64,000 nt of DNA. It comes from Octopus vulgaris. Its lineage: Eukaryota. How positions within the stretch are numbered: the stretch's first letter is position 1; each line of letters begins with the position of its first letter. The notes beneath the pieces were generated by a model, which saw only the letters and a program-made list of their open reading frames with translations, did no database searches and was not told the origin of the DNA. A program made the translations under genes and the position numbers. The DNA lies in contig OX597838.1 in the NCBI GenBank assembly GCA_951406725.2, positions 43,958,001 to 44,022,000 of the forward strand. Reading direction: 5' to 3'. Positions 1-60,736 of the stretch are shown here, piece by piece.

Positions 1-31
<31 letters not shown>

Positions 32-36
<5 letters not shown>

Positions 37-100
37 TCAGTTCCTGGAATCGAACTCGGAATCTTGGGGTTAGTAGCCCGCGCTCTTAACCACTACTCCA
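32..100 (-). mobile_element. tRNA-derived head of the PLE-associated tRNA-(TAA)n-hammerhead module (5'-truncated; continues off the window edge as (TAA)n)
   Basis: Reverse complement reads TGGAGTAGTGGTTAAGAGCGCGGGCTACTAACCCCAAGATTCCGAGTTCGATTCCAGGAACTGACCTGAA, then (TAA)n. It is near-identical to 24672-24741 and 50063-50131, with A-box and B-box-like motifs. Confidence 0.8.
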
Positions 101-13467: not shown

Positions 13468-15230
13468 TAGTTTTATTTTCATAGCGTGCTTTCACTTCAC
13501 TACCGAGCGCAGCTCTGTGTGCCTTAGGTATGTGCTGTGGTTTGTTGTGATGCTCTGATGGTTATTGTATGGAAAGTGTTCTGCGTAGGATGTGTGCAGT
13601 GCCTAGTAGTGCAATTTTCTGTTTGTTATATGTGTTTGTAAGTCCTGGTGTTTTTGTTATGTATTTGTCTGAATATTTTTTTATCATGCCTAATGCACCT
13701 ACTATGATAGGAATTGTTTCTGTTTTCAGATTCCACATTCTAGTTACCTCTATTTCCAGGTCTTTGTATTTTGAGAGTTTCTCCATTTCTTTTAGAGACA
13801 CGTTGTCATCTGCCGGTATTGATACATCAATTAGAAAGCATTTTTTTTCTTCATGATCTCTGACAACTATATCTGGTCTGTTGGCCTTAATTTCTCTATC
13901 TGTGTGTATCGGCATATCCCAGAGTATGGTTGCTTTCTCGTTTTCTGTGACCTTTTCTGGTGTGTGTCTATACCATCTTTTTTCTGTTGTTATTCCATAA
14001 TGTTGGCATAGCTTCCAATGTATGTAGGTTCCAACTCTGTCATGTCTGTGAATATATTCCTTCTTAGCCAGGACTGGGCAGCTAGAGATAATATGATTTA
14101 TTGTTTCTTGTCCATCTCCACATATTCTGCAGTTACTTGTAATATTTCTTTTCATTACATGTTTTTGGTAATTTCTGGTGGGGAGGCTTTGGTCTTGTGC
14201 TGCAATTAAAAATCCCTCTGTTTCTGCTTTGAGTCCTGAGCTTCTCAACCATTGCTGGGATTTTTCTTTGTCTATTTCTTTTGCATTTAGTTTAGTCCAG
14301 TATTTACCATGAAGGGGCTTTTCTTGCCATCGTTTTATCATGGCTCGTTGCTGTTCTATTTTTAGTTTGGATTTCATTTGTTTTATAGCTTTTGTTGTTT
14401 CTTTATCATCTTCTTCTTCTTCTTTGTGTTTATTAGGTGGTATGATTTTCCTGTTTGTATTTGTCAGCTTCCTTAAATACTGAGAACAGTTTTTTGTTTT
14501 GCTCGTGTTTTGCTGCTATCTGGATCAGTTTTCCTTCCTTCTGAAGTAGGTATTTTTGCAGTCCTATGGTGGTTATTTTATAGTAGTTTTCCAGCTGTAT
14601 AAGGCCTTACCACCTTCTATACGTTGTATATATAGTCTTTCTATGTCAGATTTTGGGTGATGCATCCTAGATCCTGTCAGTATTTTTCTTGTTTTCCTAT
14701 CTATTTTGGACAGTTCATTTCGTGTCCAGTTAAGGATATTGTAGCTGTAACTTATAACTGGGACAGCTAAAGTGTTGATACCTATTATCTTGTTTTTAGC
14801 ATTGAGCTCTGTTTTTAGTATTGATCTAACTCGTCTATAATATTCTTTTTTTATTTTCTCTTTCATTTGTGTGTGTTGTGTCTTATCTAGTTCATGGATT
14901 CCTAAGTATTTGTAAGTTTGGCTTTGGTCTAATTCTTTTATTTCATTGGTTTTATCTAGTGTGATGTTGTTACTCTTTACTAGTTTTCCTCTTTTCATGG
15001 TTACTTTGGCGCATTTTTCTAATCCAAATTTCATATCTATTTCTTTGGTAAATCCATGAACTGTCGTTAATAGTGTTTCCAGCTGTTTGTCATTTGCAGC
15101 GTATAGTTTTAGGTCATCCATATATAAAAGGTGGCTGATCGTTTTGCCGTAACATTTATATCCGCATCCAGTTCTATTTAGCATATCAGATAGAGGTGAC
15201 AGTGCCAAGCAGAAAAGGAGTGGAGAGAGC

Positions 15231-15231
<1 letters not shown>
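13465..15231 (-). mobile_element. 5'-truncated R4/Dong-clade non-LTR retrotransposon (RT C-terminal half, CCHC finger, restriction-like endonuclease), frameshifted
   Basis: ORF 14573-15367: LSPLLFCLAL..SHLLYMDDLKLYA..YKYLG. ORF 13562-14377: CRIC..ETINHIISSC, RHD, RPDIV..LIDV..EKLSKY. Both flanks are (TTA)n, the known Dong target. Confidence 0.93.
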
Positions 15232-15299
<68 letters not shown>

Positions 15300-15946
15300 T
15301 TTAGTAATCGGAGAAATGAGTGAAATATTAATATCCCCGAGTTAATATTGTGTTTCATCCCTGTCAATTATGAATTAAAATCACGTTGGATTCGATATTA
15401 ACTTTCATCCTTTTCAAGGTCGATAAAATAAATATATAGATAAAGTCACCTACTGATGCAAATTCACACGATCGCTCGTCGCCACATTGTGGCCTCTGTA
15501 AATCCATAGCTTTGAGCCAACGTAAGGTATCCATATCGATATCGATTAAAGATCATAAGCTAGTTAATGACATAAAGAATGTAAACACCTGTAAGTGATT
15601 ATCTCTGTATATAAAGTTAATATTGTACGTAAGTACTTCTAAATAAACCTGATCTAGAGATACTCTCTTCTGTGTAAAGGACACGTTCAGAGTCAGTAAT
15701 GCTAGAAAATGTCATAATAAATCTATATATGTAACGTAGGTGCATTGCAGTTTATTGTAGAAAATATCGATTTCGTTGTTAGAAGCCCATAAATGTGAAG
15801 GGGCAAATATTAACTGCATCGATCACTGTTTCAGCTGTTCAACAAAACCACCAACTTCGCAAGATATACCTAGGTACAGAAGTACATAAACCTACCTTAT
15901 GGCTAAACATCAATCACATTTAATCTCGTATGGATCCGAGCCTCAC

Positions 15947-22576: not shown

Positions 22577-23764
22577 TAATTGAACATTCTAGAACAAAGA
22601 GATGATCATCCTGTTGCTATTTCTGTAGCATCGGTTGCTGCTAATGTGATTTTTGTTGTTGTTGTTGTAGAGTCTCATACTATCTCCGATCCAGAAGAGC
22701 AATGATTCAAAACCAGAAATGGTCATCTCATATTTTAACCATTTCGCATTTCAACTGGCATTATCTAATCCAAGTATTGTACCTGGTTTATAATACAACC
22801 GACGAGATCCAACCTTTCACAGTAACCTTAAAATGTTATTTTAAAAATAAACAATAAAATTATTGAAGTCTCAAATCTAAGTGAAAATATAAGATTAATT
22901 CAAATGAATGTGAATAAATAAGCCTGTGATGTCTTTGATACAATAATCTGAATGCTAAATGGGTTAAAGATTATTTTTAGTACTACTTTATCTAATGCGT
23001 CTGCACTTTTCCCTTTATACTGATGAGCTATGATTTTGAATATCATTCATCTGCTATTCCCAGACGCTCAAGAGAATCGTTCGTTTGAGTAGGCTGATGT
23101 TATGCAGAGCTGTAAGCCGACACTCAGTCGATTAGGTCAGCTAAAACACAGCGAATGACATTATAACAATCTCGAAATAAATCAAGATGTGTTTTCAGCC
23201 AATACGTATTTGATATTGTATCATGTGATATAACATATCATATGAACTCTCTATGCAGGCATCTTTGTGTGTTCATCCACCCGGACTTGCTAAAACAGCT
23301 ACTGAAGTAGTAGAATTTAATGATGTCGACGGGATTGCTCCTTCCTTTCAAGCGTATGCCCGCTGGACCTTGCTACAAAATAGTATACTGTATATGCGCC
23401 TGATTCAGGCGAAAAAGAAATGCAGTCAAATTAAAGCAACAATAGTTAGTAAAGTGACAGACGACAAGAGAAATCAATTTGGTTAATCAATAATATTCCT
23501 ACGGTGAGGAGCCGAGAATATTAGCTCAGTGGCTTACAAATATTAATGAAATCTGATCTCTGCAAATGTGTGTAGCTATGTATATATTTACTTATATCAA
23601 TCTGTGGGCTGTCGTTGTTTCGGTAATTGACCCTCTTGATATAGTCATTATATGATATATTTGCATATCGCCGAGGAGATGAAGAAGAAAACTAGACATA
23701 TTTCATTTCTATGCTAACGAATGTCGAGTGCATGTGTATGTATGTGTAATATGTATTCATCCAA

Positions 23765-24132: not shown

Positions 24133-24664
24133 ATGTGTGTATGTGTGTGTGTGTGTGTGTATGTGTGTATGTGTATGTGTGTGTGTACTGTATATATATT
24201 TGTATGTGTATATATATATATATGTACACTGATCCCTCTCTCCCTCTCTGTCTGTCTCTGTCTCTGTCTCTTTCTCTCTATATATATATACACATACACG
24301 TGTGTGTGTGTGTGTGTGTGTGCGTGTGTGTGTGTGTGTGTGTGCGTGCGTGTGTGTGTGTGTGTGTGTTTGTGTAGCCGTATCCTTCAACCGGGAAGAT
24401 CAAATGTTGGCAGGTCAGCTTCTTAGATGTATTAGAATTACAACAACCATCTTGGTGTAGGACTGTTATAACTGTCTCTCCTAAAATGTCTCCAACCTTC
24501 CGGTTTATAAAACAAAACGATGATCCGACTAATCGTATTGCTGTAGCAGCGGCGGCTGCTAATGAGTTTCTTGTTGTCGTTGTTGTAGAGGCACATATCA
24601 TCACCGATTCAGAACAACATCTAGGAACAGGATATGGTCATTTCATATTTTTCCCCTTTCACAT

Positions 24665-24735
24665 GGGCATATGGCGTAGTGGTTAAGAGCACGGGCTACT
24701 AACCCCAAGATTCCGTGTTCGATTCCAGGCAATGA

Positions 24736-24794
<59 letters not shown>

Positions 24795-24945
24795 TCGAAA
24801 AATACCTTAGGAATGAGAACCCAGGTTCGAAATTTCCCCAAGACACCTGATGAAGGCTGGAGGGTATATCATCTGAAATGTTGTGTTAACAACAAATAGG
24901 GTGAGGACAAATATCTGTCAAATGTAAATAATTTAAATAATTTCA
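24665..24945 (+). mobile_element. Solo tRNA-head + (TAA)n + hammerhead module (PLE terminal repeat without ORF)
   Basis: tRNA-like 24665-24739 (TGGCGTAGTGG, GTTCGATTCC, loop CT-ACT-AA), (TAA)n 24741-24792, ATCGAAAAATACC, HHR at 24843-24886 and a TAAATAAT repeat tail. Confidence 0.8.
24843..24886 (+). ncRNA. Minimal type-I hammerhead motif
   Basis: ACAC CTGATGA A GGCTGG-AGGGTATA-TCATCT GAAA TG TT GTGT. Helix I is ACAC/GTGT; helix II has one mismatch. Confidence 0.7.
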
Positions 24946-25049
24946 TATGCAAATTAGCAAGATGGCAGAAAGTGCAGACAATTGGCAGGATGGATACTAA
25001 GGGACTTCAAGACAAAAGACCAATAAGCTATGTTAACCCCATTAACACG

Positions 25050-25899: not shown

Positions 25900-26402
25900 G
25901 GACGGTCTCCTTGTTTAATTTAGTGAACGCTGCCATAATCTTTACCTTCATTTCATTAAGGAGATTCGTTGGTCTCTCTCACTCACCTGCGTCCCACACA
26001 TAACAACCTAGGGCATTGCCGTCTGGGAAGTTAGGTGGCCAGATGTTAGGGGTCAGATGTGGTCGCAGAAATTGTTTGACAGCCGTGACTGAGTTCCCCT
26101 GCTTGTGTGGTATGGTGCTGAGTCCTGTTGCCAGACATAAGGTCTTCCAGCAGCCACCCTCTTGACCCAGGGCAGGACTACCTCCTCCAGGCTCTTGATG
26201 TAGGCTTACGTGTTGAGTGTGAGGCCGTGTGAGAAGATGAATGTAGGGACAAGGTCACCAACACTAGTGATCACTCCAGACACCATGATGTTGACTGGAT
26301 GTTTGATTTTTATCTCTCTTGGTACATGTCCTCAGATTGCACTGTCCTCACATTGACACCCAAACGCTCTAAAATGGCGACAATTTACCCATTGCACCTT
26401 GT
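25900..26402 (-). mobile_element. Internally deleted Tc1/mariner-superfamily element (probably DD37D/maT-like)
   Basis: Minus strand PYVWQQDSAPYH and PNIWPPNFPDGNALGCYVW (cf. WPPNSPDLNPLDY). Terminal TA|CAAGGTGCAATGGGTAAATTGTCGCC. Confidence 0.7.
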
Positions 26403-29499: not shown

Positions 29500-30385
29500 A
29501 AAGTTTGTTAAGTCTAGGTTTGTATTTTTGTGGTATTCGCTGAATACAGGTAGAGCGAGAAGACATGGAATTTGGGGGAATTAATTTTGCACATATGTAT
29601 ATGTGTCCACTCAGTGAAATCTGTCTCCAGGGACCTCGTATTTGTTGTCGGTGGATGGTCAGTCAATTTCTTTGAGTAAGCTTTGTTTGACCTATTAATA
29701 TTCAATACATCCTTGACATTTGATAGCGTATATTGAATTCATTGAAGAATATGTAAAGTGATTTTAACGTAAAATCTGTCCTGATTTGAATTTCTAACTT
29801 GTGTCCTCAATAAGGTTAATGCAGATCCCGCAATCGGGGCAGCCACACTTTTTGGATTGTTGCTGTAGGAATTGTAGAAGGTAATTTAGAACTTTTTGAG
29901 GGACTTTGATTGTCTTTTACTTTTGCTTGTTTCATTCTTGGGTCTCGTTTTAGTAGTTTTAGATGTTCTGATGGATAATATTGTAAACCTCTGTATTTCT
30001 TGGGTTGTGTGTTGTAATAAATGGTAGAGTACTGAATGTACTTGGAGCATTTTTCATTTTTAGTAGTTCTTCGATATTTATTGCATTGGCACGTTCTATT
30101 CCATTGTCTATTAACTTTAATGGATATTGTCTTTTAAGTAATACTTGTTTTAGTTCCAGGAGTCTTTTATTGTGAGTTTCAGGGTTTGAGACAATTATGC
30201 AGATTCTTCTTGCTAGATTAAAGGGGATATTATTCGTCGTGTGTTTGGGATGCCATGAGGAGAACAGTAAGTATTGTTTAGAATCTGTTTGTTTGTAGTG
30301 AATATCTGTTTCAATGATTTTACCTCTTTTGATGATTAATATATCAAAAAATGGTTGTTGAGTTTTACTGAATTCCATGGTAAGG
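29500..30385 (-). mobile_element. Decayed Penelope-like element (Neptune-type): RT thumb, Zn-finger linker, GIY-YIG remnant
   Basis: TMEFSKTQQPFFDILI..DIHYKQTDSKQYLLFSSWHPKHTTNNIPFNLARRI; downstream KCGCPDCGIC and IYAIKCQGC. Paralogous to 37985-39015. Confidence 0.85.
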
Positions 30386-30400
30386 TTAATATTATTGTTG

Positions 30401-30444
<44 letters not shown>

Positions 30445-30966
30445 GGGTGAGCCAAAATTCACGTATCTTAACATTTTTATTTACATTATGTTATTATTGT
30501 TATTGAGTGAGAGACCAGTGCATGCCGCATCAAAGAGAACTACACGAAGCCCTGTATAGCCACCATGAATACATATCTGGAAGGTTACACCAGGCACATG
30601 CATCACAACCATATGCGCCCGACATGTTGATCTCACATCAAGATTAACAGCGCAGGGCCTTGCAGATGGGGCTAAGTAAAATTTTTTTCAGGTCGAGTAG
30701 CTCATGCCGCAAAAATCTCCCTGAACAAGGATGTTAAAACGAAACATCAGAGGTTAGTTATCCAAACTCAAAAGAATTCCTCTCAACCCGTGACTTCGAT
30801 GCTCCCCGACTACTTCTGCTCATGATCAGAGATGCACATATCAGCTCAACTGGTTAAGGTCAAGCAATTGACAAACAAATTTGTGGTATTGAGCAGAATA
30901 TTTGCTGTATTCCTTCTTTTATACCAAGACAAAACGATCTACATGATAAAACTTATTATTATTATT

Positions 30967-35757: not shown

Positions 35758-36994
35758 TTAGGTTGTCAAGAAAGTTCTTGCGGTTTTTAACCTTTAAATT
35801 CAGAAGCAGATATGTCGACCCAAACAAAACTTTATAAATCGAAAGAAACACCATCGAAACCAACACACTTTTGCCAACGCTAAACAAGTCTATTTATGCC
35901 AGTAGCATAAAAATCCTGCGTTCTGCCGGTGATGAAGTCGTTGAATACATATTTGGCATCGTCTTGGTTTTTGAAGCATTTCTCACAAAGGAAGTTGTCA
36001 AGATGCTTGAAAAAGGGGTAGTCGGAAGGTCAAAGGTGTAGTGAGTATGGCAGATGAGGCAGAATTTCGTAGCCCAATTCGTTCAACTTCTGCAGGGTCA
36101 GTTGTGCGACGTGCGGCCGAGCGTTGTCGTGGAGAAGAATTGGTCCTTTTCTATTGGCCAATGCTGTCTGTTGTGGGAGTTTCTCATGCAATTCATCCAT
36201 TTGCTGACAATACTTCTCCGCCGTAATGGTTTCGCCTGGATCCAAAAAGCTGTGATGGATGAGACCTGCCGCAGACCACCGAAGAGTCACCACAACCTTC
36301 TTTTGGTGCAATTTTGGTTTCGGGAAGTGCCAATTTTGGCTTCGTTGGCGTCCATTCACTGAGCTGTCGTAAAGAATCCACTTTTCATCGCAAGTCACAA
36401 TCCGGTCGAGAAAAGGGTCATTCTTGTTGCGTAAAAAAGGTTGTCGTTCAATTCGTGCGGCACCTATTTCTCGAGTATTTTTGTTTTTCCAATCTCTTTC
36501 AAGTGGTTGGAAATTGTGGTATAAATTATTTCTAATTCAGAAGCAAGCTCTCGAACAGTTGTGTGTGGATTGGCTTTGACTAAGGCTCTTAGTTGATTGT
36601 TGTCAACATCCGCTGGCTGACCACCACGCTTATCATCTTCAAGACTCTCGTCACCGCTACGAAATTTCTTGAACCACCTTTGTGCTGTTCGTTCATTAGT
36701 GATTCCTGAGTCAAACGCATCGTTAATATCGCGAGCTGTTTCAGCTGCTTTTCGGCCTAGCTTAAACTGGAATAAGAAAATTGTGCAAATTTGCTTTTTG
36801 TCCATGTTGTATTCAACGTTCCGGAAAAAATGGCCTAATTATTCAAAAAGAAAAAGCGTAACACAATTAGACAGAGTGAAAAACGGGCTTTACAATGATA
36901 TATAAATTGAAAGTAATTTAACGAAAATTAATTTGAAAATACATAATTGAAAACCAAAATAAAAAATTCCGTAAGAACTTTCTTGACAACCTAA
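35758..36994 (-). mobile_element. Full-length mariner transposon (Hsmar1-like, cecropia-type), frameshifted transposase
   Basis: TIRs TTAGGTTGTCAAGAAAGTTCTT / AAGAACTTTCTTGACAACCTAA with TA TSDs. ORF from 36805: MDKKQICTIFLFQFKLGRKAAETARDIN..; TCDEKW, LLHDNARPH, HLPYS motifs. Confidence 0.95.
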
Positions 36995-37984: not shown

Positions 37985-39290
37985 AAACCCAAATATACAG
38001 TTCACAATGGAATACAACCAAAAGGAGCTCCCGTTCTTGGATATACTAATTAAAAAAATTAACCTTAAAATAGAAACAGACATTTTTTACAAAGCCACAG
38101 ACGCCAAACAATACCTTCTTTTTAATTCATGCCACCCAAGACACACTAAAACAAACATCCCCTTCAACCTTGCAAGAAGGATATGCACAATAGTGTCAGA
38201 ACAAAATACCATGGAACTTTAGACTGCAAGAACTCAAAAACACCCTAATTGACAGACATTACCCAGCTCAACTCATAGAGGGTGGGATCAGACGTGCAAC
38301 AGAAATCAACATAGAAACTTTAAGAAAAGTTCAACACAACAACACACCTTCCTCGAAAATACTACCTTACATATCTACATACAACCCCAGAAACAAAGAA
38401 GCCTTCACCATCATCACCCAGAATTTACCAATACTTCATAAGGACCCCAAATTAAAGGAAATTCTAAACATACACCAAATCATTAAAAGCTACAAACAAC
38501 CTAAATCACTTAAAAAGATTCTCACAAAGGCAAAATTGTTTTCTGAAATTACGGATGCAAAAGTAAAAAAATGTGGTAGATCGAACTGTGCAACATGTCC
38601 AAACCTGCTAGAAGGATCAGAATTCCTCTTTAAAGAGGGACAGAAATTCAAGATCAAATCTAACGTTACTTGTGCCTCTGAAAACATAATTTATGTCATA
38701 AAATGCTCGGGCTGCCACCAAGACTACGTGGGATCCACGGGACTATCACTCAGACGTAGATGCACACTGCATCGACAACAGATTGCATTCCCAGAATACA
38801 GAATGATACCTTTTAGTGAGCACATTGAGAAATGCGCAAAGCAACTACTACCACAATTTTTAATCTTTCCATTTTACCAATGTGCTATCGGATCATCAAC
38901 ACAAATTAGACTAAACAAGGAAACATTCTTCATTGAAAAGTACAAGCCCAGACTTAACCATTCTAACATACTGATACAGAGAAATTCACACCAAGGGAAA
39001 GGAAAAATATTTTAAGCGATTATCTCCCTTACACCGGAAGAAATCCCTCATTACCTCCCCTTATTTAGGACTCTTTTAAACATAAACATAACGAAAACTC
39101 TGTTCAACATAAACATAACGTCGTAAGAAATTTGAAAAGCTAAACGCGAAACCGGTCTTTCTTCTAAACTATGTCATTGTAAGAAAAAAATTTCTAATAT
39201 TCTTCAGACATATTGACTCAAATATATATTTTTTAACCTTTAAGCCTTCTGTAGTTTTTTCACTTTTTACTATTTTCTATATATTCAACC
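37985..39290 (+). mobile_element. 5'-truncated Penelope-like element (Neptune-type) with GIY-YIG endonuclease and a 3' hammerhead
   Basis: INPNIQFTMEY..LPFLDILI..QYLLFNSCHPRHTKTNIP; then KCGRSNCATC, IYVIKCSGCHQDYVGST..LRRRCTLH..RLNKETFFI..PRLN. HHR-like motif about 110 bp after the stop; inserted in (TA)n. Confidence 0.92.
39125..39163 (+). ncRNA. Minimal PLE hammerhead, U3-A8 variant
   Basis: AAGAAA-T TTGAAAA GC-TAAAC-GC GAAA CCGG TC TTTCTT. Palindromic ACCGGT; helix I AAGAAA/TTTCTT with one bulged T. Confidence 0.7.
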
Positions 39291-49193: not shown

Positions 49194-49244
49194 GGAAACA
49201 TAGAAGTTGAACCAGTGTGGAATAAAATAACGTTAATAATTTAT

Positions 49245-50026
49245 CGAAGATAATGGTGAACCCACAGTTAAACCCTCGTCTTGTCGATATATATCAGTGT
49301 CCATACTGAAGTTGGTAGTTTCTACACAGAAGATCAACATTTCCATCAAGTTTTTTATTGGTATACGAGTCCGTTCTTTTAGATGGGTGCCTGTCACTAG
49401 TTTTTCATGAATCACCGATAGGGATTCACCGATAATAGCCAATATATACATGGAATACTTTGAGAATCTGGCTTTAGGATCAATACCACAAAAACCAACC
49501 ATATGGCTGCGATATGTTGATGACACCTTCATACTCTGGCCCCACCAGGAATATGTCCAAGTGTTGTTAGATCATGTGAAGTCAATAAGCCATCCATACA
49601 ACGGAAAAAGAGAAAAGACAAACAGCTAGCATTCCTGGACGTATTAATAGCACACACCAAGTGATACAATACTTCACAAATATCTCCTTCGAGTAAAACC
49701 ACCAATAGAAGAGAATGTGACCAAGAACTGCATGTACTCCATCCCATGCAGTTGTGGTATATTATACAAAGCGAAACATACCACCCAACAAAATAAGGGT
49801 AGAGGAACATCGCAAAGCTGTGACACGGGAAAATATTGATAAACCGGGTATAGCTGATCATGTATGGAAAAATGGAGACCAAAATAATAGAGAACATCAC
49901 TGGAAAATACGAAAACTAAAAGAAGCAGCACATATGCACAACAACCTCCAAAGCAGACCGAGTGCAGATATGAACAGCATATGGAAACCGGAATTAATGA
50001 CGGACAGGAGTATATTAGATTTATAA
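49245..50026 (+). mobile_element. Decayed Penelope-like element (Penelope/Poseidon-type) with an inverted 5' segment
   Basis: Plus strand SPIIANIYMEYFE..WLRYVDDTFILWP, then YSIPCSCG and KIRVEEHRK..GIADHVW..RKLKEAAH (GIY-YIG). The minus strand of 49245-49432 encodes the preceding RT part, ending YRQDEGLTVGSPLSS. Confidence 0.88.
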
Positions 50027-50055: not shown

Positions 50056-50173
50056 GGACATATGACGTAGTGGTTTAGAGCGCGGGCTACTAACCCCAAG
50101 ATTTCGAGTTCGATTCCAGGAAGTGATCTGAATGATAATAATAATAATAATAATAATAAAATCGAAAAATACC
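50056..50173 (+). mobile_element. tRNA-derived head + (TAA)n immediately 3' of the PLE ORF
   Basis: GGACATATGACGTAGTGGTTTAGAGCGCGGGCTACTAACCCCAAGATTTCGAGTTCGATTCCAGGAAGTGATCTGAA, then (TAA)n and ATCGAAAAATACC. It starts 30 bp after the stop at 50026 and is truncated before the HHR. Confidence 0.85.
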
Positions 50174-59574: not shown

Positions 59575-60736
59575 ACTCTTTCTTTTACTTGTTTCAGTCA
59601 TTTGACTGCGGCCATGCTGGAGCACCGCCGGGACTTATTCTTTGTAAGCCCATCATCATCATCATTGTTCGACAGTGGTCGAGACAATGGAATTTACCAT
59701 GCTACGCCAGACTTCACGGTCCATCATGGCATTACGGAGGTCCTGTTGCTGGATGTCTGTATCCCTGGAGATTACATCAGGGTAGGAGAGTGTGCGCCCT
59801 CTGGTATTGCGAGTAGATGGCTTCCAGAGGAGAAGAGTAGAAATTACTTCTTTTTCAGCTCTACAACAATGTCCAGCAAACTGGACTCTCCTACCTTTCA
59901 CAAGAGATGACACAGGTGGTAGTTTCCCATATATTTGCATTTTGGTTGGATGGCGCTTCCACGAGAGATTTTGAGCTCTCATAAGGAGGCGAGTGTAGGT
60001 TCCATCCAACCGCCTCTCAAGCTTCTTTGATAACGTCCAGGTTCCTGAGCCATATAGTAGAATTGGTTCGACCGTGGCTTTGAAAATTTCAAGTTTGAAG
60101 TCTCTACTTAGATTTGATGACCAGATCTTATGCATGTCATTACAGGCTGACCAGGCCATACCCTTTCTAGTTAGAAAGTCTTTTCCAGATGATGATATGT
60201 ATGACCCAAGATATTTATAATCAGAAACCATATTTAAGGGCGCGTTGTTGAGAGTGTGGATGATGCAATCACTGTTGGACAGGCACTTGTTTATGTATTC
60301 AGTCTTGGCCTCATTGAGGTAAAGACCTACACAATTTGAGGCTTGTTCAAGAGATTGTAAAAGAGACTGGGCATTGGAGAGAGAATCACTGATAAGAGCG
60401 ATGTCGTCAGCAAAGTCGGTGTCTGTCAAGTAATCAGCTGGGTGTCTGGAACTTCTTCTTGGTTTTATTTCAAAGCCCTTGCCAGAGATGGTATCAACTG
60501 ACATACGTAGCACATAATCAACAACAATGATGAAAAGAAATGGGGCGAGTGTGTCTCCCTGCAGTATTCCGGCTCTGATTGAGAAAGATGATGTTGTACT
60601 GTTGTAAGCCCAGTACTTATTCTATCGGTCTCTTTTGCCGAATCGCTAAGTGACGGGGACGTAAACACACCAGCATCGGTTGTCAAGCAATGCTAGGGGG
60701 ATAAACGCAGACACACAAACACACACACACACACAC

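Follow-up and report, generated by a model that had tools for sequence, protein, structure and literature searches.

A lone octopus repeat with a tRNA-Arg-derived head is a decayed pseudo-LTR of an abundant Penelope-like element that may be transcribed by Pol III

The closest described system is the green anole's Poseidon PAc (Frangieh et al. 2024, PMC11167929), a Penelope-like element (PLE) of the Penelope/Poseidon clade that inserts at AT-rich targets and has a single ORF encoding a reverse transcriptase (RT) with a C-terminal GIY-YIG-type endonuclease (EN). Its hammerhead ribozyme (HHR) cuts 26 nt after the ATG, requires protein and is dispensable for insertion in vitro; reverse transcription starts inside the RNA at two sites bracketing the tail, and the RNA must extend to +172 of the ORF (PMC11167929). 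The octopus PLE described here shares with Poseidon PAc the single RT and EN ORF, an HHR cut site (here a predicted one) downstream of the start codon, AT-rich targets and two 3' end sites within the ORF start, with a tail of about 30 nt between them. It differs in having its ATG 34 nt ahead of the HHR core, not at stem II as in Poseidon PAc, and in its tRNA-derived head; the main text of PMC11167929 mentions neither such a head nor a Pol III promoter.

The available sections of the papers on Drosophila virilis Penelope (PMC2377424) and Adineta Pen2a (PMC3846280) describe a promoter and the first ORF codons within the pseudo-LTR (pLTR), an inverted 5' copy, target-site duplications of 8-10 bp and solo pLTRs, all as in the octopus PLE. 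Unlike the putative octopus promoter, those of Penelope and Pen2a are of the Pol II type (TATA-less and LINE-like, or TATA/Inr), and Penelope has an intron, of which the octopus PLE shows no sign. The octopus HHR follows the minimal type I HHRs of metazoan PLEs, which according to the accessible part of PMC4209133 have no stable helix III, a palindromic 15.2-16.2, a short helix I, an extra base before helix II and a G10.1-C11.1 pair; only the decay of the individual copy studied here sets it apart. A small-RNA-derived Pol III promoter in a terminal repeat is also found in TRIMp3 elements (Cassandra, Helenus and Ajax; PMC10886601, in part). These are non-coding and LTR-type, with a pair of LTRs enclosing a short non-coding PBS/PPT region, whereas the octopus head sits on a coding element of the PLE class whose repeats flank a 2.5-kb RT/EN ORF; the part of PMC10886601 at hand argues that Pol II must transcribe the autonomous partners of Pol III-driven elements. 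Schistosome Sm-alpha/Sj-alpha repeats likewise contain a tRNA-like sequence, with a hammerhead in Sm-alpha, which is tied to tRNA-Gln-TTG and has no ORF partner described in the sections available (PMC2770079); the octopus head is tRNA-Arg(ACG)-like. Animal non-LTR retrozymes, as far as described in the available portions of PMC7229834 and bioRxiv 10.64898/2026.07.22.740005, resemble the octopus units in being pLTR-derived, non-coding and equipped with a type I HHR. Retrozymes form tandem arrays (PMC7229834), whereas the octopus units, solo or inverted, are identical to the repeat of the coding element.

The window, i.e. the whole stretch of 64,000 nt of Octopus vulgaris DNA that was analysed, carries such a unit at 24665. 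The original prediction had read it as a tRNA-derived head, a (TAA)n tract and a minimal HHR joined in one unit, with no TTTT from head to HHR. All motifs were confirmed at the positions listed here, and the first TTTT past 24665 was at 26307.

24657..24665, + strand: candidate target-site duplication, 5' copy (TTTCACATG), matching 24941-24949 at 8 of 9 positions
24665..24740, + strand: tRNA-Arg(ACG)-derived head, 24665 being tRNA position 1, from a gapless alignment to a host gene
24672..24682, + strand: A box TGGCGTAGTGG, tRNA positions 8-18, read from the sequence
24717..24726, + strand: B box GTTCGATTCC, tRNA positions 53-62, read from the sequence
24742..24792, + strand: (TAA)17 tract, the length of which differs between family copies
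24813..24815, + strand: predicted start codon of the PLE ORF, 5' of the hammerhead and in frame with an 830-codon frame
24842..24887, + strand: minimal type I hammerhead, predicted to cut after GUU at 24882, with the architecture given in the available part of PMC4209133
24847-24853 (CTGATGA), 24875-24878 (GAAA) and 24880-24882 (GTT), + strand: HHR parts
24842-24846 (GACAC) and 24883-24887 (GTGTT), + strand: HHR helix I
24888..24940, + strand: first ORF codons, reaching as far as the first of the predicted RT start sites, placed from the 3' end histogram and PMC11167929
24941..24949, + strand: candidate target-site duplication, 3' copy (TTTCATATG)

The insertion spans 24665 to about 24940 and lacks both the optional tail of about 30 nt and the inverted arm. 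Its candidate target-site duplication is 9 bp long with one mismatch. The 5' flank (24561-24664) is an older repeat whose second window copy (22643-22749), the sole homologue of the flank, is only 74% identical. Compared with the family majority, the HHR of this copy carries a G>T change at 24872 that creates a mismatch in helix II, a C>T change at 24874 that turns the G10.1-C11.1 pair into G-U, and a C>T change at 24879 that abolishes the AACGTT palindrome. Judged by what PMC4209133 sets out in its accessible part, these three damaging changes would make it a poor ribozyme.

The genome measures 2.8 Gb in 30 or so chromosome-sized contigs, and the unit belongs to a large repeat family there. 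Exact genome-wide matches numbered 1585 for a 23-mer of the head, 2961 for a 34-mer of the HHR and 2663 for a 36-mer of the tail, against 0 for each reversed control, indicating that the unit is not a chance assembly of motifs. Insertions amount to some tens of thousands, a rough figure from the overlap of head and tail matches on contig C1, read by hand. Rfam at its gathering and E-value thresholds matched neither a tRNA nor a hammerhead at the unit, and ARAGORN found no tRNA in the window. Single-strand folds of the head and HHR were no better than those of shuffled sequences (z = -0.4 and -0.3), as expected since the head is decayed and the HHR is of the dimer type. Across the family, the (TAA)n tract is often split by other repeats that part the head from the hammerhead (L070, L073-L075, L079, L142 and L158).

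Alignment of the head to a host tRNA-Arg(ACG) gene (in L224) was gapless with a score of 71, whereas 2000 shuffles scored 26 ± 4 with a maximum of 42; the comparison set comprised host Arg genes only, so a closer isoacceptor is possible. The head retains its A and B boxes, while pairing in the T-stem and acceptor stem, as read from the tRNA alignment, is gone. Host tRNA-Arg genes have T-rich runs within a few bases downstream, which reached four T or more in 5 of the 6 genes shown. A low-stringency search of the sampled loci for other tRNA-Arg-like heads revealed no independent SINE sharing this head, its five weak matches being the heads of other SINEs. The octopus repeats OR1 and OR2, which we take to be tRNA-Arg SINEs, are presumably candidates for a link to the head. 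The sampled loci also included tRNA-Arg genes (ACG and TCG) densely clustered in tandem, with a spacing of about 206 bp (G000:C2:211.887-211.907 Mb, L233-L240).

The unit at 24665 is a lone decayed pLTR of an abundant PLE of about 2.8 kb and is probably not a separate SINE. Walking upstream from the junction between ORF end and head showed that full-length copies are about 2.8 kb long and carry the same repeat at both ends, each opened by the head; one of them (L218) begins 2 nt before its 5' head. The majority sequence of 19 copies (2,771 nt) contains one 830-codon frame, open through the hammerhead and tail, and the frame is also open across both in the natural copies L205 and L216. The only upstream in-frame ATG of the majority ORF corresponds to window position 24813. 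Since this frame crosses the hammerhead, the start codon would be lost on cleavage. The N-terminus encoded by the hammerhead (PDDG..PKR) is kept in distant homologues (P0003, P0006, P0017, P0029 and P0078), and the variable repeat near the 3' end of the family is 9 nt long and preserves the frame. An RVT_1 domain was detected above the Pfam cut-off in one copy (L206, 34.8 bits). The ORF's C-terminus (VY-CSC-YKGET) aligned to P0054 with an E value of 4e-24, and Pfam GIY-YIG gave no match in the family ORF; the GIY-YIG-type label therefore rests on motif and alignment. Together with this single RT/GIY-YIG-type EN ORF, the family displays further traits of EN+ PLEs: pLTRs in partial tandem, an inverted 5' copy, an optional tail of 30-40 nt and, by sequence motif, a minimal type I HHR within the pLTR. 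From the domain order and the HHR-in-ORF layout we infer that it belongs to the Penelope/Poseidon clade. Family copies lie 4-8% from the majority; all are decayed and no intact ORF was present among those examined. The HHR core is kept in the family, and its commonest non-CpG core variant falls at the free N7 position.

The ORF-head junction on which the original prediction depended is recurrent: a 32-mer across it has 77 exact matches genome-wide (0 for the reversed control), and 10 of 50 head-anchored copies enter the end of the ORF. A locus set selected by the junction (30 of 30 with it) is not a frequency count. The window itself holds three heads, as had been noted, at 24665, at 50056 and at 100-1 on the minus strand, with identities of 95% and 88%. 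At 50056 the ORF end indeed adjoins the head, which begins 29 nt after a stop codon at 50024-50026.

1..100, - strand: third head, which begins with the A box (tRNA position 8), has an inverted tract copy before it and runs off the window
49241..50026, + strand: broken 3' part of the PLE ORF with RT motifs and a GIY-YIG-type C-terminus; frameshifted, with an inverted 5' piece at 49241-49430 and about 340 nt missing near 49660
50056..50173, + strand: 3' pLTR of that copy, consisting of head, tract and 13 nt, without the hammerhead

The 5' ends of the insertions cluster at the head. In a head-anchored sample (the first 50 head matches on C1, blind to starts inside the head), 40 copies started 0-7 nt before head position +1, 15 of them at -6/-7 and 15 at -1/0, and none started at -8 to -23. 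Solo copies therefore do not have the random 5' ends expected of simple truncation. An HHR lay within 700 nt of the head in 38 of these 50 copies and an inverted arm was present in 33; inverted arms on PLE copies are likewise reported in the available sections of PMC8557442 and PMC3846280. A tail-anchored sample of 50 loci, classed by eye, represented 48 insertions (L155 and L261 being the same insertions as L154 and L170). Thirteen of the 48 stopped or were interrupted in the tract or later and 35 reached the head, where 3 stopped within it, 23 stopped at -14..+8 and 9 continued into the ORF. The stop rate was about 0.058 per nt at the head start, in a -14..+8 window chosen post hoc, compared with 0.001-0.002 on either side. 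Among 12 ORF-bearing copies with a detectable head in the 5' repeat, the start fell at -7..+8 in 6, within the head in 1 and further upstream in 5; the 12 are a biased set drawn from 34 distinct copies joining 5' repeat and ORF start, de-duplicated by eye, with two headless ORF-end copies left out. The head start is therefore also the 5' end of ORF-bearing templates. In contigs from sequencing runs, the summed depth of the head was about 4-5x higher than that of the upstream sequence, and head -2..0 was a recurrent place for loose ends; as depth is not copy number, this is not counted as evidence. Presumed RNA runs shared their 3'-heavy profile with the other runs and showed no starts or ends. 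RNase P trimming was considered as a source of the 5' ends and rejected, since the stems are disrupted and 15 of the 40 copies start at -6/-7.

A run of four T (T4) is a terminator for Pol III. The sense strand of the 19-copy majority contains no T4 in 2,771 nt, as against 31 runs of at least four A. This absence was unusual in mononucleotide shuffles (P = 0.005), dinucleotide shuffles (P = 0.046) and synonymous-codon randomisation (P = 0.027, 2.8 expected); runs of four G are also absent (1.1 expected, P = 0.28). Real family copies had 69 T4 in 150.6 kb (0.46 per kb), at 46 sites each found in at most 11% of the covering copies. Control fragments of similar T content had 47 in 16.8 kb (2.8 per kb), made up of 14 in 4.1 kb of other PLE, 30 in 11.7 kb of R4-like and 3 in 1.0 kb of RTE sequence. 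The difference gave P values of 0.0004-0.002, with a Poisson P of about 0.002 when decay was allowed for; the control fragments are few and partly related, the test concerns one family and its strictest null gives P = 0.03-0.05. All loci examined in a genome search with homologue P0003 belonged to this same PLE family, with no sister family for a T4 comparison. The T4-free strand suggests Pol III use of the element. The recurrent junction and the solo 5' ends at the head likewise support a tRNA-derived, Pol III-type promoter built into the PLE terminal repeat, and to that extent the original prediction stands. We consider it rather probable, though short of a confident conclusion, that the solo pLTR derives from a 2.8-kb PLE with a tRNA-Arg-derived A/B-box promoter and that Pol III transcribes the whole coding element from the head.

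The other end of the insertions did not behave as predicted. The original prediction had the ribozyme make the 3' end, at a cut after post-tract position 90. Among 134 distinct arms, 72 had their ends at post-tract positions 140-149 and a further 43 at 170-184, and positions 90-94 held none; the two clusters lie about 55 and 85 nt past the predicted cut site. Tail anchoring biased half of these loci towards long ends, but the head-anchored set had the same two ends. These two ends beyond the cut, together with the internal RT starts of anole Poseidon, indicate that the ribozyme is not the maker of the template 3' end.

We propose the following sequence of events, in which the steps at the DNA target are modelled on anole Poseidon. 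Pol III would start at the head and read through the entire coding element. The RT/GIY-YIG protein would nick AT-rich DNA, and reverse transcription would begin internally on uncut RNA, about 130 or 155 nt past the ATG. Priming at the first repeat would copy hammerhead, tract and head to the RNA 5' end and yield a solo unit, often with a fold-back arm, whereas priming at the second repeat of a tandem would copy the ORF too. The hammerhead, assisted by dimerisation or protein, would cut off the start codon and the promoter leader and would not make the template 3' end. Against the Pol III reading, an uncapped Pol III RNA must somehow get translated, and a 2-codon upstream ORF (ATG GCG TAG, window 24670-24678) at head +6 overlaps the A box and precedes the main ATG; the PLE protein could come from Pol II read-through instead. 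A bolder version, which we advance only tentatively, is that an autonomous coding element replaced its Pol II promoter with a tRNA gene and purged Pol III terminators over a 2.8-kb strand, so that Pol III makes both template and mRNA, the first-codon hammerhead switches translation off and internal priming sheds tens of thousands of SINE-like solo copies. An autonomous element would in this way lead directly to a SINE.

Solo units could instead be Pol III-transcribed masters in their own right, with the PLE enzyme acting in trans to copy them again from uncut RNA. Solo copies outnumber ORF-linked ones by about 4 to 1, each retains the promoter boxes and RT start sites, the copy at 24665 is T4-free for 1.6 kb downstream, and pLTRs can act in trans in Adineta, as stated in the available part of PMC3846280. 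The family also has the tRNA-derived head, A/B boxes and 5' end at the head that mark a SINE. When 86 solo and 64 ORF-linked repeats were projected on the majority, no diagnostic substitution separated them and no non-coding master lineage was apparent. Columns with P < 0.01 were limited to two small deletions, commoner in ORF-linked repeats, and the copy number of the 9-nt repeat, and the common variants (G/A at head 64, T/A at HHR N7) were present in both classes. The sample is small and its loci were partly chosen for their resemblance to the window copy, a choice that inflates two CpG sites among the solo repeats. As solo and ORF-linked copies share both sequence pool and start site, the self-propagating SINE or retrozyme of the original prediction is not supported so far. 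ORF-carrying masters with the same start suffice, and the RNA requirement of anole Poseidon, to +172 of the ORF, exceeds the solo ends (PMC11167929), so that part of the cis signal is probably missing from a solo copy. With this need for sequence 3' of the RT start taken over from Poseidon, solo copies, which have no ORF sequence past the RT start sites, are probably dead ends. We regard a PLE-dependent SINE as unlikely; the simplest model appears to be one master set, in which first-repeat priming on head-started RNA yields the solo unit. Two pairs of insertions (L076/L080 and L246/L247), 0.1-0.9 Mb apart on C1, share a rearranged 5' junction, for which local duplication is likely and a re-copied solo unit is possible.

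A different account makes the head a passenger: a tRNA fragment captured once into the 3' UTR, with transcription by Pol II as in Drosophila Penelope and 5' clustering due to a hairpin or a coincident Pol II start. A 4-bp hairpin with a CACG loop (-5.4 kcal/mol as RNA) does straddle the head start at -6..+4, for example in L088. Perhaps it is left over from the joining of the head, and its structure may contribute to the clustering, since in about 5-7 of 40 solo copies the fold-back falls on it. A capped RNA would remove the translation problem, and the Penelope pLTR carries an internal LINE-like TATA-less promoter (PMC2377424, available part). Many ends fall at -4..+8, away from the hairpin snap-back point, and an inverted arm is missing from about 11 of the 40 solo copies; the account also leaves unexplained the T4-free strand and the keeping of the A/B boxes despite the lost stems. 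We find it rather improbable. As for a retrozyme, in which a Pol III start and a ribozyme-made 3' end would give a template RNA or circle of about 220 nt, the conserved HHR core and the pLTR origin of animal retrozymes (bioRxiv 10.64898/2026.07.22.740005, in part) speak for it, but its role as template is largely refuted and the reading very improbable: insertions run beyond the cut, a cut RNA would lack the RT start sites, the sampled loci are solo copies, inverted pairs and short partial tandems with no long head-to-tail arrays of HHR monomers, and Poseidon can insert in vitro without cleavage (PMC11167929).

In the full-text literature searched, which takes in a minority of subscription papers and neither Repbase nor Dfam, no PLE was seen to be described as having a tRNA-derived head, and no autonomous retrotransposon as being transcribed by Pol III; the supplementary repeat library of PMC13282606 may hold the family. 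If the Pol III reading of the octopus PLE is true, a coding element driven by a tRNA promoter breaks the Pol II rule and raises the question of how a Pol III RNA is translated. To our knowledge, autonomous retrotransposons are taken to be transcribed by Pol II, or co-transcribed with rDNA as is thought for R2. The family also provides a natural read-out of transcription start and RT start sites across very many insertions. A repeat that looks like a SINE can be the by-product of an autonomous element, which matters for the annotation of SINE-rich genomes such as that of octopus.

Remnants of other elements were seen in the window. Fragments of another PLE-like family with a weak GIY-YIG match and T4 runs, used among the T4 controls, lie at 38194-39015 (+) and 29707-30480 (-). 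Read from their translations, 13562-15367 (-) resembles an R4/Dong-type element, 59662-60621 (-) an RTE-type element and 36030-36536 (-) a mariner transposase. Elsewhere in the genome, G000:C31 holds five near-identical matches to region 203-325 of P0003, perhaps a satellite or a duplication with a PLE fragment.
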